Of a stretch of DNA of 64,000 nt, positions 1 to 6,817 are shown in pieces. Under the pieces are notes generated by a model. It saw only the letters and a program-made list of their open reading frames with translations. It was not told the DNA's origin and ran no database searches. Source of the stretch: Thermoanaerobaculia bacterium (GTDB taxonomy: Bacteria > Acidobacteriota > Thermoanaerobaculia > Multivoradales > Multivoraceae); the NCBI GenBank assembly GCA_963664405.1, contig OY761158.1, forward strand, positions 5,920,001 through 5,984,000, written 5' to 3'. The position numbers and the translations under genes were made by a program. Position 1 is the stretch's first letter. Each line of letters starts with the position of its first letter.

Positions 1-2270
1 AGACAGACCGAGAACTCGGCATCGTCGCAGGGCATGGGGCCGTCGTTGTCGTTGAGAGTGAGGGTCGCCTCACTGGGGCTGCCGAGAGAGGCGCCTCCAG
101 CGACATCGGCGAGAGACAGCGACACACTCTCGGCGGGCTCACTTTCGCCGTCGTCGAAGATCGGCACGTCGAAGAACTTATTGGCGGCATCCCCGTCACT
201 CCAGGCGAGGGTGCCGAAGGTGGCGGCGTAGTCGCTGCCGGCGGTAGCGGATCCGTCTGCGGTTGAGTAGTCGACGGAAACGCTGCCGTCGGAGCCTTCA
301 TCTCTAGAGACGGCCACGGTCGCCATGCCGTCGCCCTCTCCGACCGAGAAGGTCGTCGACACAAATTGCAGCTCGCCGGGGCCGGTGATGATCTCCTGCC
401 CGAAGACATAGGCCGAGCCGCTGAAGAGACCGTTGTCGTCGTCTCCGAAGGCCCCGACGACGACGTCGCTGCCTGAGACGGCGACTGAGAAACCGAAATG
501 GTCGTCTGCGGCGGCGTCGGATGCCAGGAGTTTGACGGCCTCGGTGAGGGTGCCGGCCCAGCCGCCGACGGGCTCGGTGAACAGATAGGCCGAGCCACTC
601 TGGTTGCCACTGTCGTCGTTGTTGGCTACGCCGACGGCGACGGTGCCGCCGGAGACGGCGACGGACATGCCGAATCGGTCATTCACGTCGCCGTCGGAGG
701 CCAGGAGTTTGGCGGCCTCGGTGGGAGCTCCGGCCCAACCGCCGACGGGCTTGGTGAACACGTAGGCCGAGCCGCTTTGCTTGCCGTTGTCGTCGTCGGA
801 GTCAGCGCTGCATACGACGGTGCCGCCGGATATGGCGACGGAGCTGCCGAAAAAGTCGGCTGCGGTGCCGTCGGAGGCCAGGAGCTTCGCAGCCTCGGTG
901 ACGGTGCCGGCCCAACCGCCGACGGGCTCGGTGAACACGTAGGCCGAGCCGGTGGAAGTGCCGCCGTCGTCGTCGAAGGGAACCCCGACGACGACGGCGC
1001 TGCCGGAGACGGCGACGGAGCTGCCGAAAAAGTCGGCTCCGCCACCGTCTGAAGCCAGGAGCTTGGCGGCCTCGGTGAGGGTGCCGGCCCAGCCGCCGAC
1101 GGGCTCGGTAAACACGTAGGCCGAGCCGCTTTGGCCACCGTTGTCGTCGTCGGAGTCAGAGCCGATGATGACGGTGCTGCCGGAGACGGCGACGGAGATG
1201 CCGAATCGGTCATTCACGTCGCCGTCGGCAGGCAGGAGCTTGGCGGCTTGGGTGAGGGTGCCGGCCCAGCCGCCGACCGGCTCGGTGAAGACGTATGCCG
1301 ACCCGCTTCCTGTGCCGTTGTCGTCATCGAAGGCAGACCCGACGACGACGGTGCTGCCAGAGACCGCAACCGAGCCGCCGAAGAAGTTACCTGCGGCGCC
1401 GTCGGCAGGCAGGAGCTTGGCGGCTTGGGTGAGGGTGCCGGCCCAGCCGCCGACCGGCTCGGTGAACACATAGGCCGACCCGCTTAGGTTGCCGTTGTCG
1501 TCGTCGGAATCAGCGCCGACGACGACGGTGTTGCCGGAGAAGGCGACGGACTCGCCGAAGCGGTCGTTTATGGCACCGTCGGCAGGCAGGAGTTTGGCGG
1601 TCTCGAAGGTGGGGTCGACGGTCACCGGCCATCGGACATCCGCAACCACCGTGCGGATTGTCAGGCGTTGCCCAGCCAGCTCGAGGCGCGCCGGCAACTC
1701 CCGGCCCGAAGCGTCGAAGGCGACGAGTCCGCGGTAGCGCAGCCCGGCCGCGGGAAAGCGCAGTGACCGCCTGTCCCCACCGAGAAGCGCCGATCCGACA
1801 ACCCGGAGCTCGATCACCAGGTCTCTAGCCGCCTCGCAACCGGCCCCCGGAGCTTCGACCGTGAAGCCCTGCTCGACACCCAGTGGCCCGGCGACATACC
1901 ACTCGGTGATCCCGTCCCAGGCGAGCTCGACCCGGTTGGCCAAAGCGCCCGAGCGGCGGGCGGTGGCGTCGGCAAGGGAGGACTCGCACCCCCAGCTGAG
2001 AAGACGCATCCCGACCGACCCGCCCGATCCCCTTACCTCGACACCGCCGCCTTGGAAAGACGCCACAAGCCCTTGAGCAGGGCTAGGGAGGAGGAAGCCC
2101 TCACCCTTGGCACGGGCGTGGTACCTCGTGTCCTCGGCGCCGAGTCCTGCCGAAACCAAGGGGCGCAGCCAACCGTGCTCGGCGAGGCTCGTCGCTTCTG
2201 CTGCTGGGACCAGGCCTGGAGTCAGGCACTGGAGAGTAATGACGATAGAAATCAGGTGCTCAAGCTTCAT
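1..2270 (-). CDS. Secreted FG-GAP repeat (7-blade beta-propeller) + Calx-beta protein with the shared Cys-bracketed C-terminal domain; 3' end runs off the window
   Basis: Not in the ORF track because there is no stop in the window. Manual translation from ATG 2270 (GGGAGG RBS upstream): MKLEHLISIVITLQCLTPGLVPAAEA signal, an N-terminal domain (EWYVAGPLGVEQGFTV...WPVTVDP), seven KLL-D-FG-SVA-SG-TVVVGA-GSAYVF repeats, Calx-beta, then DNDGPMPCDDAEFSVC at the window edge in the same frame. Confidence 0.9.
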   Translation of the reverse strand, partial: MKLEHLISIVITLQCLTPGLVPAAEATSLAEHGWLRPLVSAGLGAEDTRYHARAKGEGFLLPSPAQGLVASFQGGGVEVRGSGGSVGMRLLSWGCESSLADATARRSGALANRVELAWDGITEWYVAGPLGVEQGFTVEAPGAGCEAARDLVIELRVVGSALLGGDRRSLRFPAAGLRYRGLVAFDASGRELPARLELAGQRLTIRTVVADVRWPVTVDPTFETAKLLPADGAINDRFGESVAFSGNTVVVGADSDDDNGNLSGSAYVFTEPVGGWAGTLTQAAKLLPADGAAGNFFGGSVAVSGSTVVVGSAFDDDNGTGSGSAYVFTEPVGGWAGTLTQAAKLLPADGDVNDRFGISVAVSGSTVIIGSDSDDDNGGQSGSAYVFTEPVGGWAGTLTEAAKLLASDGGGADFFGSSVAVSGSAVVVGVPFDDDGGTSTGSAYVFTEPVGGWAGTVTEAAKLLASDGTAADFFGSSVAISGGTVVCSADSDDDNGKQSGSAYVFTKPVGGWAGAPTEAAKLLASDGDVNDRFGMSVAVSGGTVAVGVANNDDSGNQSGSAYLFTEPVGGWAGTLTEAVKLLASDAAADDHFGFSVAVSGSDVVVGAFGDDDNGLFSGSAYVFGQEIITGPGELQFVSTTFSVGEGDGMATVAVSRDEGSDGSVSVDYSTADGSATAGSDYAATFGTLAWSDGDAANKFFDVPIFDDGESEPAESVSLSLADVAGGASLGSPSEATLTLNDNDGPMPCDDAEFSVC
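395..1605 (-). repeat. Seven intragenic 177-bp (59-aa) FG-GAP repeats
   Basis: GSAY(V/L)F-encoding motifs recur near 409, 586, 763, 940, 1117, 1293 and 1470 (177-bp period). Confidence 0.9.
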
Positions 2271-2391
2271 TGAAGGCCTCCCGAGCTCAGTTCGCAATCA
2301 CCCGCCCGAAGTCGGACGAGCAGGTAGCCCCGCCCCGCGGCAGAGCCTTTCTCCGGGACCTCAAGCTGTTATCGCTGGCTTAATAAGCGCC

Positions 2392-2400
2392 ATGATAGCA
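2392..2400 (-). promoter_or_regulatory. Possible extended -10 promoter element (TGcTATCAT) upstream of the FG-GAP gene
   Basis: Minus strand reads TGCTATCAT about 120 nt upstream of ATG 2270, followed by a relatively AT-rich stretch. Motif match only. Confidence 0.3.
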
Positions 2401-2445
2401 GCCGTCGCTGGAGTCGCCCGGCTGGGAGATGGGCTCGACTGGCGG

Positions 2446-4016
2446 CTACAGATCGCAGGTCGGGAAGGCGCCAAGAGCCGCGGTCGTCGCCTGGATCGCG
2501 CCGGGAGGATTTGCCTGGCCGTCGGGCGATTCGGGTGCCGGAGTAAAGAACGGTTGATTCAGCTCGTTGATGAACTTGCGCACGGTGCCGGTCACCGTAT
2601 CGACGATGGTGATCTCGACCCGCACATTGGTCAGTCCTGCGATGAACACCCAAAAGTTGCGTAGCGGATGCCCGTCCGGCAGCGTGCAGGTGTCTTTCAT
2701 CTTGACCACGATCTCGACATTGCCGACTTCGAAGAACTCGAAGGAGGCGGCCGAGTCGGTGAGTTTGAAGGCCCGCGCGTCACCCATCGATCCGTCGTTG
2801 GTCTCGAAGCGGATGGTGACCAGAAAGCGATCCAGGAGACAGACCGAGAATTCGGCGTCGTCGCAGGGCATGGGGCCGTCGTTGTTGTTGATGGTGAGGG
2901 TCGCTGCACTCGGGTTGCCGAGGGAGGCGCCGCCACTCGCATCGGCGAGAGAGATCGACACGGTCTCTGCAAACTCGGGGGCGACGTCGTCGAAGATAGG
3001 AATGTCGAAGGACTTGTTACTGGCGTCGCCCTCACTCCAGTCGAGGGTGCCCGAGACAGCGGTGTAGTCGCTGCCGGCGACCGCCGAGCCGTCAGCGGTG
3101 TAGTAGTCGACCGAAACGCTGCCGTCGGAGCCGCCCTCTCTCGACGCGCTGAGGGTTGCCATCGCCTCGCCCTCTCCGACCGAGAAGGTACTCGAGGTGA
3201 ATTGCAGTCCACCCGCACTCGCGGTGTCGTTGTCGGTAATCCTGAGGGTGGCCTGGCTCGGGCTGGCGAGGACCGCGCCGCCGGTGGGAGCGGAGAGAGC
3301 GAGAGTCACGGTCTCGTTGTTCTCACTTTCAGTGTCGTCGAGGACCGCTACGGTGAAGCTTTTCGTGCCGGCCTCCTGGTCGGCCCACGAGATAGATCCG
3401 CTGGTGCCGGTGTAGTCCACTCCTGCCGTGGCCGAGCCGTTGGAAGTGGCGTAGCTCACCTGGACCATGCCGTCGCTGCCACTCACCCGCTCTACATCGA
3501 TGACCGCGTTGCCACCATTCTCCGGCTCGACGAAGACAGCTCCGGTGAAGCGGATCTCGCCGTTGTCCGCGGACGGGGGCGCCCCACCTTCGACGATCAC
3601 TGTTCCCGACATGCCGCCGCCGGCAAAGCCGTGCGCCTCGCAGTGGTACGGGTTGCTGCCGGCAGTGTCGAAAGCGAGAGTGAAGCTGGTCCAGCTGCTG
3701 CTGAGGTCGCCGTCGCCGCTCTGCCCGTCTCCGTCGCAGCCATCAGCGCAGCGAAACGAACCATCGTCCGCAGCTACATTGTGCTCAAGGTCGCTTTCGA
3801 GAGTCCAGGTAACGGTGTCGCCGACTTGAATTGTGAGCGTGGCCGGAAAGAATCTCGGATCTTGGCCTGCCCCGCCTCCCCCGTAGCCGTCGTCGTCGCC
3901 CCCGTCCGCCTCGCCCCCTAGGAGTACGACGCTATGGTTGGCCGCGGACACGGGCAGGGAGAGAGGACGCCCAGGACGAGCGACAAGGCGATCGGGAGGG
4001 TTCCTTTAGAGGTCAT
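2446..4016 (-). CDS. Plastocyanin-like cupredoxin + 2x Calx-beta + shared C-terminal domain; signal peptide disconnected by a frameshift at ~3958-3966
   Basis: Type-1 Cu ligands HNV...YHCEAHGFAGGGM and Calx-beta repeats (VSYATSNGSATAGVDY). ATG 4016 gives MTSKGTLPIALSLVLGVL, paralogous to MTSRIYPS... of the neighbour, but it is out of frame with ORF 2446-3951 at a CTCTCT tract. Confidence 0.85.
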
Positions 4017-4022
4017 CTGGTT

Positions 4023-5552
4023 TTACACGTCGCAGGTGGGGAAGGCGCCCAGAGCCTCAGTCGTTGCCTGGATCGCGCCCGGAGGATTCGCCTGGCCGTC
4101 AGGAGATTCAGGTGCCGGCGTAAAAAACGGCTGATTCAGCTGGTTGATGAACTTGCGAACGGTGCCGGTCACCGTATCGACGATGGTGATCTCGACCCGT
4201 ACATTGGTGAGGCCGGCGATGAAGACCCAGAAGTTACGCAAAGGATGCCCGTCGGGTAGTGTACAGGTATCCTTCATCTTGACCACGATCTCGACATTGC
4301 CTACTTCGAAGAACTCGAAGGAGGCGGCCGAATCGGTGAGCTTGAAGGCGCGCGCGTCACCCATCGATCCGTCGTTGGTCTCGAAGCGGATGGTGACCAG
4401 AAAGCGCGACAGCAGACACACCGAGAACTCGGTGTCGTCGCAGGGCATGGGGCCGTCGTTGTCGTTGATGGTGAGGGTCGTTACGCTCGGGTTGCCGAGG
4501 GAGGCGCCGCCACTCGCAGCGGCGAGGGAGATCGACAGGTTCTCCGCAAACTCGGGCTCGACATCGTCGAAGATGGGGACGTCGAAGGATTTGTCGGCGA
4601 CGTCGCCGTCACCCCAGTCGAGGGTGCCGGAGACCGCCGTGTAGTCGCTGCCGGCGAGCGCGGTGCCGTCGGCGGTGTCGTAGTCGACGGAGACGCTGCC
4701 GTCGGAGCCGCCCTCTCTCGACGCGCTGAGAGTCGCCATCCCTTCGCCTTCTCCAACCGAGAACTCGCTCGAGGTGAATTGCAGCTCCCCCGGGCTGGCG
4801 GAGTCGTTGTCGGTAATCCGAAGCGTTGCCTGACTCGGGTTGATGAGAACCGCCCCGCCGGTGGGGGAGGAGAGGGTTAGATTCACCGTCTCATTGCCCT
4901 CGTCCACGGCGTCGTCGAGGATCGTTACGGTGAAAGTCTTGGTGCCGGTCTCGCCGTCGGTCCAGGAGAGGTTGCCACTGGTGGCTGTGTAGTCCTGGCC
5001 GGCGGTGGCGGAGCCGTTCGAGGTGGCGTAGCTCACCTGGACCGCGCCGTCGCTACCATTCACCCGCTCGACCCGGACGACCTCGTTGCCGCCGTTCTCC
5101 GGTTCGACGAAGAGGTTGTTGGTGAAGCGGATGTCGCCGTTGTCGTCGGGTGTGGGCGTAGGCGTGGGCGTGGGCGTGGGCGCACCCCCCCCCTCGACGG
5201 TGACCGTCCCAGACATGCCGCCGCCGGCAAAGCCGTGTATCTGGCAGTGGTAGGGGTTGCTACCGGCGGTGTCGAAAGTGAGAGTGAAGCTGCTCCAAGA
5301 CGCCGTCGGGGCGCCATTGCCGCCCTGCCCGTCGCAGCCGTTCGCGCAGCGAAACGCACCGTCGTCCGCGTTTACGTTGTGTGTCCCGCTGAAGCGTGTC
5401 CAGGTAACAGTGTCGCCGGCCTGGATATTGAGATTCTCCGGGGAGAAGGAGAAGTTCCTGACTTCGACGTCGTGATCGGCAGCAGACGCGGGGAGGGAGA
5501 AGACTGCAAGGAGGCACAGCGAGGCGGCAGAGGGGTAGATTCTGGAGGTCAT
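4023..5552 (-). CDS. Secreted plastocyanin-like cupredoxin + PT linker + 2x Calx-beta + shared C-terminal domain
   Basis: Signal peptide ending ASA-A, HNV...YHCQIHGFAGGGM, a PTPTPTPTP linker, Calx-beta x2, and a C-terminal GPMPC...AFPTCDV almost identical to the paralog. Confidence 0.92.
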   Translation of the reverse strand: MTSRIYPSAASLCLLAVFSLPASAADHDVEVRNFSFSPENLNIQAGDTVTWTRFSGTHNVNADDGAFRCANGCDGQGGNGAPTASWSSFTLTFDTAGSNPYHCQIHGFAGGGMSGTVTVEGGGAPTPTPTPTPTPDDNGDIRFTNNLFVEPENGGNEVVRVERVNGSDGAVQVSYATSNGSATAGQDYTATSGNLSWTDGETGTKTFTVTILDDAVDEGNETVNLTLSSPTGGAVLINPSQATLRITDNDSASPGELQFTSSEFSVGEGEGMATLSASREGGSDGSVSVDYDTADGTALAGSDYTAVSGTLDWGDGDVADKSFDVPIFDDVEPEFAENLSISLAAASGGASLGNPSVTTLTINDNDGPMPCDDTEFSVCLLSRFLVTIRFETNDGSMGDARAFKLTDSAASFEFFEVGNVEIVVKMKDTCTLPDGHPLRNFWVFIAGLTNVRVEITIVDTVTGTVRKFINQLNQPFFTPAPESPDGQANPPGAIQATTEALGAFPTCDV

Positions 5553-5721
5553 CGCAGATCCTGTGATTGTAGCGGATGTACCAAGGATGAAAAGTCGACG
5601 CAGTCTTCCGTCTCTGGAGCTTGACGCACCTTTTGGAGAATACGGCCGCTGTGGCTCGTTGGTTTTGCGGAGGAAGGTATTAGAGGCCTCGCGCCAAGCT
5701 CAGGAGCCGCTACCCGAGATA

Positions 5722-5758
5722 GGTATGACAGTTTTTGCTGGGTATGACAGTTTTTGCT
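5722..5758. repeat. Tandem duplication GGTATGACAGTTTTTGCT x2 (19-bp period)
   Basis: Exact 18-nt copies at 5722-5739 and 5741-5758, at the 3' end of the monooxygenase pseudogene. Confidence 0.85.
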
Positions 5759-6817
5759 ATTCGGGAACAGCCGCGCTGGTGATGAAACCCATCATCATCT
5801 CGTCCGTGCTCTCGCGACCGAAGGTCACGGGGCGCCTCGAGTCGAAGCCGTAAAACCGCGGCTCGCTCCGGCGTATTCTCGAACCAGGCGGTGTATTCGA
5901 TGCGGGTGCCGGCGGGCACGAACTTGAGATCACGGAAGCGGTAGACGGTCTGCCAGCTGAAATCGTAGTCGGGCACTTCGAGAAGAACCTCGCTGGTGCC
6001 GTCCGGATAGAAGGCCTCGAACTGAGCCCCGCTGCCGCGCATATGCATATGCGGCATCAGGTTGATGATCTCGGAATCTTTAGTGAAGGTTCTCGACACC
6101 GGCCCAAGCTGATGGCGCTCGGCGCCTGGCGGGATCTCGAAGCGGTAGACGCTGAGCGGTCCGTAGCCATCCATATTGCCGCCCATCTGGCGAGTTGGAG
6201 GCTTGTCGGTGAGCTTGAAACCGATATTGGAACGGTCCCCCGGGCTTGCACTGGAAGGCGGTGATCCACATGTCTCTGTCGAGCATCTCTTCTGTGAGGT
6301 CCACCGAGAAGGCGGCGTAGAGGTCGACGACGTCGTCGCTCACCCAGTAGCGCTCCGGCATGGGTACGACGAGATCGGGCTTGCCGATCATCCAGCCGTC
6401 CTGGTTCTCGAATCACTTGGCGGGCGGCGCGTCACTGGCGGCGCCGGCGGGGGAGCCTGAGGAGGCCCAACGCACCAGCATCTCTATCTGGTCGTCGCTG
6501 AGACTACGCTCGTTGAGGAAGACTCCTCTGTGCTTCGGATGCGCGTCCCAGGGCGGCATCTCGCGGCTGGTCACCGCCTTGGCGATGGACTTCGCCCACG
6601 GGCGGACCTCCTCGTAGGTCCGCAGCGCCATCGGAGCGAGCAGCCCGCCGTAGCTGGTGCCGGCTTCTCGATGACACTCTTGACAGTTCTCTTGGAGGAT
6701 CGGAAGCACCTCTCGGTAAAAGGTCAGTGTCGCAGCGTCGTTGGCGCCGGAGGCTGCTGCCAAACCAAGGAAGAGTGTCGCAGCAAGGCTACCGAGGAAG
6801 GCGAGGTTCTTGCTCAT
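5757..6817 (-). pseudogene. Decayed cytochrome c + copper type II (PHM/DBH-like) monooxygenase-domain protein
   Basis: Signal peptide and CQECH heme motif, an in-frame TGA at 6413-6415 (PPAK*FENQDGWMIGKPD), a frameshift/deletion at ~6238 (CKPG|DRSNIG), the PHMHMRG motif, and a further frameshift near 5853 before FGRESTDEMMMGF...*. Confidence 0.85.

Follow-up and report, generated by a model that had tools for sequence, protein, structure and literature searches.

An uncatalogued terminal domain shared by unrelated exported proteins of Thermoanaerobaculia: a candidate retention module

Results and Discussion

Three adjacent genes with one tail

What role does a single 143-amino-acid (aa) tail play on neighbouring proteins with differing passengers? 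The question is raised by the start of the window, as we call the whole 64,000-nucleotide stretch analysed here (positions 5,920,001 to 5,984,000 of contig OY761158.1 of a Thermoanaerobaculia bacterium, assembly GCA_963664405.1), where this tail, hereafter the module, closes all three neighbouring minus-strand genes (Table 1). The results support the conclusion that the module is an uncatalogued, lineage-wide terminal domain found on unrelated exported proteins of the class Thermoanaerobaculia, and we lean toward a role in retaining these proteins.

The original prediction for this locus described both the shared tail and the passengers in front of it, and both were found as described. Copies 1 and 2 of the module each comprise 143 codons plus a stop (432 nucleotides) and are 96.5% identical as protein and 89.6% identical as DNA; copy 3, which is whole just outside the window start, shows 95.1% protein identity, the three tails ranging from 95 to 97%. 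Codon differences in the three pairs were mostly synonymous (synonymous to non-synonymous, 36:5, 40:7, and 27:5), which indicates that the protein sequence of the tail is under selection. In 90-nucleotide bins, DNA identity between genes 1 and 2 was 0.82 to 0.96 over the module versus 0.52 to 0.84 over the leader and cupredoxin part, in agreement with the claim that the tail is more conserved than its passenger. Gene 3 extends past the window start and encodes 886 aa in the genome. Sec signals had been assigned to all three genes; with signal peptides called by eye and from hydrophobicity, and no dedicated predictor used, signal-like leaders were recognised on genes 1 and 3, whereas the leader of gene 2 is out of frame (see below).

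Table 1. Features of the three module-bearing genes, in window coordinates
Feature	Position	Strand	Description
Gene 1	4023-5552	-	509 aa; signal-like leader, cupredoxin (aa 28-120), Pro/Thr linker, two Calx-beta domains, module
Module copy 1	4023-4454	-	143 aa plus stop; all-beta, predicted disulfides C5-C13 and C64-C141
Insert, copy 1	4068-4124	-	19-residue Pro-rich insert (module aa 111-129), subfamily-specific, kept in relatives from other genomes
Gene 2	2446-4016	-	cupredoxin, two Calx-beta domains, module; signal-like leader from ATG 4016 in another frame
Gene 2, open frame	2446-3951	-	leaderless
Module copy 2	2446-2877	-	143 aa plus stop; 96.5% identical to copy 1
Insert, copy 2	2491-2547	-	19-residue insert
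Gene 3	1-2270	-	signal-like leader, unnamed N-terminal region, seven FG-GAP_2 repeats, Calx-beta domain, module
Module copy 3	1-41	-	first 14 codons in the window; remainder at G000:C1:5919610-5920000

Family size and spread

A match to a characterised Pfam family, raised at the outset as a possible outcome, was not obtained. Searches of Pfam and NCBIfam with the window module returned no family match, a single DNA polymerase IV match (E = 0.055) being at chance level, and chance-level matches were all that eight canonical copies gave in NCBIfam and three copies in PHROGs. Precomputed Pfam lists of 25 carriers included no family covering the module, PDB sequences yielded no match at E ≤ 10, and the ESM Atlas returned unnamed Acidobacteriota clusters at 0.79 to 0.80, under its usable range, and no named match. 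A literature search whose reach did not extend to subscription papers and supplements found no paper on the module, and PMC8528874, searched by keyword, contained nothing relevant.

In this genome, an iterated profile detected 45 copies of the module spread over 34 stop-to-stop frames, of which 11 had two matches. In 32 of the 34 frames the end lies within 22 residues of the last match; the other 2 are frame-broken. The profile matched 10,570 clusters at 50% identity, and the module was detected in 34 of 301 genomes of the phylum and in 67 of 121 genomes of the class (these tallies include the unpublished genome G024, which is the sole basis of no claim); within the class, where at most 36 matches were scored per genome, 35 genomes had at least 15 matches, 32 had 1 to 11, and 54 had none. 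Of the best 79 named loci, all were labelled Thermoanaerobaculia, Acidobacteriota, or kin except two contigs from a single bin labelled Deltaproteobacteria and one "uncultured bacterium." This spread bears out the statement in the original prediction that similar tails occur on many Thermoanaerobaculia proteins, and the family is not limited to three recent duplicates. A 166-kb IMG/VR contig encoding a module-bearing exported protein (L117:4113-5459) may be host DNA.

The module occurs in approximately 10,570 clusters and, in several families of Thermoanaerobaculia, on at least 30 exported proteins per genome; it is nameless in the libraries searched and has no clear solved relative. In this widespread and largely uncultured class of Acidobacteriota, it could serve as a sequence marker by which to recognise the surface or extracellular proteome.

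Position, copy number, and carrier architecture

Far from being mostly internal, the module was C-terminal in 81 of 87 complete carriers from 79 loci (2 open-ended carriers were dropped) and elsewhere in 6; one copy was present in 57 carriers and two in 30. The invariant extreme C-terminal position that had been proposed did not hold, as N-terminal, both-end, tandem, and stand-alone copies were all found. A C-terminal copy was lacking in 20 of the top 150 representatives (this set favours multi-copy proteins), and 12 of these 20 had a pair directly behind the leader. P0157 and P0022 have one copy at either end, and proteins of 143 to 160 aa that consist of leader and module alone were found in G196, G186, G286, and L115.

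Module pairs within a protein were 65% identical, versus approximately 51% between proteins. First and second copies did not form distinct sequence types overall, with the exception of one subfamily with a 2-residue linker, which has separate first-copy and second-copy clades. The AlphaFold2 model of a tandem pair (251 residues) had a predicted template modelling score (pTM) of 0.88 and a mean per-residue confidence (pLDDT) of 92.2, which suggests that tandem copies hold a fixed mutual orientation. An uncontrolled complex prediction for two separate copies of the window module scored 0.13 (mark, 0.42) and speaks neither for nor against pairing.

A hydrophobic N-terminal stretch was present in 182 of 239 carriers, and many of the others look fragmentary or have misplaced starts. 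None of the 239 had an internal transmembrane segment (three matches were leaders behind over-long open reading frame starts), one had a lipobox-like leader, and none of the 74 carriers scanned had an SLH domain or other catalogued anchor (E ≤ 1e-5). According to Pfam, the passengers in 29 frames of this genome include trypsin-like proteases and metalloproteases, hydrolases, laminin G, PA, PKD, and fn3 domains, propellers, and a cytochrome c peroxidase-like protein. One module-bearing gene of approximately 450 aa, with no Pfam family, recurs divergently from a recurring gene pair (L041, L042, L043, L044, L047, L056, L058, L075, L092, and L106), and at several loci a gene that by eye resembles a TonB-dependent receptor also lies near it.

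Predicted fold and conserved patch

In the AlphaFold2 model, the window module is an all-beta domain with nine strands; pLDDT is 84.5 overall and exceeds 90 at 94 residues, and residues 112 to 133 are unresolved. In a covariation analysis of 465 copies, C64-C141 and C5-C13 were the top two pairs, and all four Cys were present in 379 copies; 72 of the 81 C-terminal carriers end one residue past the last Cys. Together with the lack of internal membrane segments noted above, these results agree with the earlier description of a beta-rich tail with four Cys and no transmembrane helix.

Residues E55, K59, and W76 were invariant in 150 copies, and N53, F48, F49, F78, T83, D93, N104, and the terminal D, A, and F were nearly so. 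The even positions of strand 54-62 covary with strands 18-25 and 86-93. By these couplings, E55, K59, W76, and F78, joined by W47 in canonical copies, would sit on the sheet face opposite the hydrophobic core, near the terminal strand, and a conserved binding patch is predicted on that face. An intramolecular Lys-Asn isopeptide bond, considered in view of the conservation of N53, E55, and K59, seems disfavoured by the predicted course of N53 to K59 along one strand.

In fold searches with the single-module model, the best match had a Z score of 5.6 (root mean square deviation [rmsd], 2.6; 79 residues aligned; 7vma), and Foldseek listed none at E ≤ 0.001 in PDB and BFVD. The tandem model gave a best Z score of 6.3 (rmsd, 3.7; 108 aligned; 5xq3), and its two Foldseek matches at E < 0.001 were discarded (TM score, 0.23; rmsd, approximately 20). 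No type IX secretion system (T9SS) C-terminal domain (CTD), SLH, or dockerin entry was listed in these searches, a result that shows neither a differing nor a new fold; the fold is possibly new. As the module is small and looks stable, its structure and ligand are directly testable in a laboratory host.

Likeness to known targeting elements

None of the 119 relatives closest to the gene 3 passenger carries the module. By Pfam, the tails of these relatives comprised 12 T9SS CTDs, 1 FlgD_ig domain, and 1 dockerin; by eye, 19 were dockerin-like, and others were short and lineage-specific. The short tails resemble IPTL-CTERM, MYXO-CTERM, and two unnamed motifs. From these comparisons, the module appears to occupy the slot in which each lineage sets its own envelope-targeting element. 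Sharing this slot supports a role in targeting or retention and does not separate sorting from binding.

Like the module, T9SS CTDs (Por_Secre_tail, PF18962; FlgD_ig type, PF13860) are folded, all-beta terminal domains carried by many unrelated Sec-exported proteins, and they take the same slot on FG-GAP passengers. However, hhalign comparison with 12 CTDs gave a probability of 0.2 to 0.3% (control, 99.6%), and the module is longer (approximately 115 to 143 aa with two disulfides, compared with approximately 75 aa, the PF18962 model length). It also occurs in N-terminal, tandem, and stand-alone copies rather than being strictly single and C-terminal. As for an Ig-like CTD fold, the fold searches gave middling scores.

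SLH domains (PF00395) act non-covalently, occur at either protein end, are repeated, and are found on many unrelated exported proteins. The module shares each of these properties, the first of them in its predicted role. The SLH fold consists of helical repeats, whereas the module is predicted to be a beta domain and has no PF00395 match. Other families of the class have an expanded SLH complement: SLH was not found in this genome (control matched), and it was detected in 0 of 19 genomes of the window's family and in 7 of 14 and 8 of 14 genomes of the module-poor families f11 and f12, respectively. In family f7, SLH was found in 8 of 14 genomes and the module in 11 of 14, and in genomes such as G286, G349, and G357, both are expanded (>50 SLH matches and at least 34 to 35 module matches).

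Dockerins (PF00404), which pair with cohesins (PF00963), are likewise small terminal coupling units on diverse secreted proteins and, in other lineages, fill this slot on FG-GAP passengers. In contrast, the module is all-beta and has no Pfam or profile similarity to dockerins, the duplicated calcium-binding loop-helix was not found in it, and cohesins appear not to follow it across the class.

PEP-CTERM, IPTL-CTERM, and MYXO-CTERM are described as tripartite sorting signals (PMC1569441; 10.1101/2023.06.07.544157), each made of a short motif, a transmembrane helix, and a basic cluster, with an invariant Cys in MYXO-CTERM; the latter source makes no mention of Acidobacteria (10.1101/2023.06.07.544157). 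Going by these descriptions, such signals resemble the module as many-copy C-terminal elements with lineage-specific expansion, whereas the module is globular and lacks a transmembrane helix or basic tail in 239 carriers. With no Pfam match, the low hhalign probabilities, and no transmembrane helix, the earlier statement that the tail matches neither T9SS CTDs nor PEP-CTERM-type signals is upheld. The module thus seems to combine an architecture like that of SLH or dockerin with a position like that of T9SS CTDs, and in sequence it matched none of the three.

A candidate non-covalent handle

Overall, we consider it somewhat more probable than otherwise that the module works as a non-covalent handle: exported proteins would be retained or gathered through it on a shared target in the envelope or the matrix, and pairs would increase avidity. 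Starting from the observed family, its architecture, conservation, positional freedom, and lack of a membrane segment, and from the predicted fold, disulfides, and pair packing, we infer the following route, location, and ligand. The passengers have signal-like leaders and no membrane segment. After Sec export, the module would fold in the periplasm, where C64-C141 would pin the C-terminus onto the domain, and as the end would then be tied down, it would not be a free cleavable tag. The folded proteins would leave through a general outer membrane route, for which the type II secretion system (T2SS)-like system of this genome is a plausible candidate. The patch formed by N53, E55, K59, W76, and F78, normally together with W47 and the terminal D-T-x-A-F strand, would then bind one common target, either a glycan of the cell surface or matrix or a surface protein of high abundance. 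Copies in tandem, packed against each other, would add avidity or complete a binding site, and Calx-beta, PKD, and fn3 domains would serve as stalks that keep the passenger off the attachment point. The identity of the module ligand would explain by what means exoenzymes are kept back in these diderms, in which neither T9SS nor SLH would do so.

Several points weigh against retention by such a handle. The ligand or receptor and the surface location are inferred, the exposed patch was placed by covariation of 465 sequences and not by coordinates, and the packing of two linked domains can be over-predicted in models. As SLH and the module co-occur in family f7, they are not simple alternatives, and kin genomes are not independent. 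Furthermore, the 93% C-terminal bias and the slot shared with T9SS CTDs would suit a sorting signal equally well. Overall, anchoring is the better fit. The sorting or anchoring system envisaged in the original prediction is retained here as a lineage-wide terminal module on exported proteins and not as an invariant extreme C-terminal signal with its own machinery.

Alternative readings and the search for machinery

An unlikely reading is that the module is a folded secretion signal for outer membrane transport, similar to a T9SS CTD or a conformational T2SS signal, read by an undescribed translocon or by the T2SS-like machine. The C-terminal position in 81 of 87 carriers and 32 of 34 frames of this genome would suit such a signal, as would passengers that are typically extracellular (proteases, leucine-rich repeats, PKD domains, and propellers) and the slot that the module shares with the T9SS CTDs of 12 of 119 related passengers. 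Another route would also be needed, as the PorV family was not found in this genome (97% complete), while the control was matched in B. thetaiotaomicron. The 12-CTD profile had no match in this genome, and SprA_N and Por_Secre_tail were not found either, but their controls were also silent. The N-terminal pairs and the both-end, tandem, and stand-alone copies are difficult to reconcile with a secretion signal, and copy number is graded across the 121 genomes of the class.

A T2SS-like operon (L123:4139-13389; G000:C1:3544139-3553389) encodes F, E, pseudopilins, and a secretin that has TPRs at its N-terminus and a cohesin at its C-terminus. The genome also has a type IV pilus operon; both operons could provide a general exit for folded proteins. 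While this secretin could be taken as support for a secretion signal, its cohesin was rejected as a partner of the module, as it appears to follow the order (28 of 29 genomes of the window's order, this genome not counted): G119 and G326, which are free of the module, have it, and this query did not detect it in the module-rich family f7. The cohesin family as a whole was detected in 32 of 121 class genomes, module-free ones included, and in 0 of 14 in f7, with many scores near the cut-off. A literature search found no paper on a secretin with a cohesin. In this genome, a cohesin-like domain is also present on a small protein that resembles a lipoprotein (G000:C1:65686-66456, minus strand; L125), and there is a single dockerin match elsewhere (G000:C1:6278563-6278712, plus strand).

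No cognate machinery emerged elsewhere. Clustering of the neighbours of 37 and then 117 module loci yielded orthologous synteny and generic families only, with no recurrent sorting protease. A crude list held 22 outer membrane candidates, and none of the three candidate partners checked tracks with the module across the class. One of the rejected candidates, an unnamed lipoprotein linked to pilQ, is class-wide (102 of 121 genomes) and was not found in any of the 17 genomes of the module-richest genus, g2. The pilQ region of this genome (L122:3793-13813) is broken up by transposase-like genes, and behind it lie three lipoprotein-like genes (first the unnamed one just mentioned, then one TIG and one Big_1/PKD). 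The T2SSK model was set aside as unspecific, having matched 9 control genomes, including Gram-positives. The sole exosortase is XrtH (L121), and three proteins have IPTL-like transmembrane tails (G000:C1:3026174, 5363302, and 2438890); XrtH and these tails constitute a small sorting system of their own.

It is rather improbable that the module instead serves protein-protein coupling, in which copies would pair like with like within subfamilies and single-copy proteins, the three of the window included, would join into mixed complexes outside the cell, similar to dockerin-cohesin assembly but scaffold-free; stand-alone copies would cap or regulate the pairs. The packed tandem model, the greater likeness of copies within a protein, the position-specific clades of one subfamily, the presence of at least five well-supported subfamilies in this genome, and the three adjacent genes whose near-identical modules are under purifying selection behind differing passengers are all consistent with coupling. 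However, tandem duplication also yields like-with-like pairs, the two copies of most pairs are not distinct sequence types, and a membrane anchor that could hold complexes was found on no carrier. Least probable is an accessory substrate-binding or stabilising domain (similar to carbohydrate-binding modules or PPC domains) that would direct enzymes, once released, to a polymer or particle outside the cell and not to the producing cell: the patch resembles the aromatic and Glu/Lys/Asn-type sites that carbohydrate-binding modules use, and flexible position, tandem copies, and many hydrolase passengers fit, but the cupredoxin, leucine-rich repeat, and propeller passengers have no common substrate and few passengers are glycan-active.

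The window subfamily

The three window copies cluster with G000:C1:4892680-4893108 of the same genome and with relatives from other samples in a 22-row clade (support, 98/97), and Calx-beta domains precede the module in all members. In 15 of 15 full-length relatives, W47 is replaced by E, and the terminal D is lost. The 19-residue Pro-rich insert has a mean identity of 82% in 15 relatives, versus 53% and 72% for the two preceding domain parts. Its low model confidence is probably due to too few insert-bearing rows, as 2 of 37 aligned rows had the insert. Judging from these sequences, the window copies represent a distinct subfamily with an altered patch and a conserved insert, and its ligand or partner has probably changed. 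At least four further supported subfamilies share this genome.

A bolder and unlikely proposal would make the module the address label in an undescribed system by which Thermoanaerobaculia assemble proteins outside the cell or export them: a pair-working beta domain without a clear solved-fold match, present in several specificity classes per genome (the insert class of the window being one), by which dozens of secreted enzymes and adhesins would be sorted to distinct receptors or coupled like with like into mixed surface complexes.

A frameshift in the middle gene

Recognition of the window copies as an insert-bearing subfamily is new here, as is the frameshift of the middle gene (gene 2) just past its signal peptide. 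This gene has no in-frame signal peptide; the frame breaks at approximately 3955 to 3970, right after the signal-like leader and near a short CT/C run. Contigs from 4 of 4 compared runs (two studies; one run may be the source sample) span the site without a gap or differing letter, which makes an assembly error unlikely. As its relative P0005 has such a leader in frame and the run contigs cross the break ungapped, the middle gene is probably broken or leaderless in this strain. Several other module genes of this genome read as frame-broken within a copy in this assembly (L010:14744-17263, L011:6171-8762, L017:6721-7782, and L016:6881-7180).

Upstream of gene 1, the overlapping frames 6413-6817, 6080-6391, and 5710-6186 (minus strand; 5710-6817 of the window) resemble one frameshift-broken exported gene with a CxxCH motif and a copper-monooxygenase-like end.

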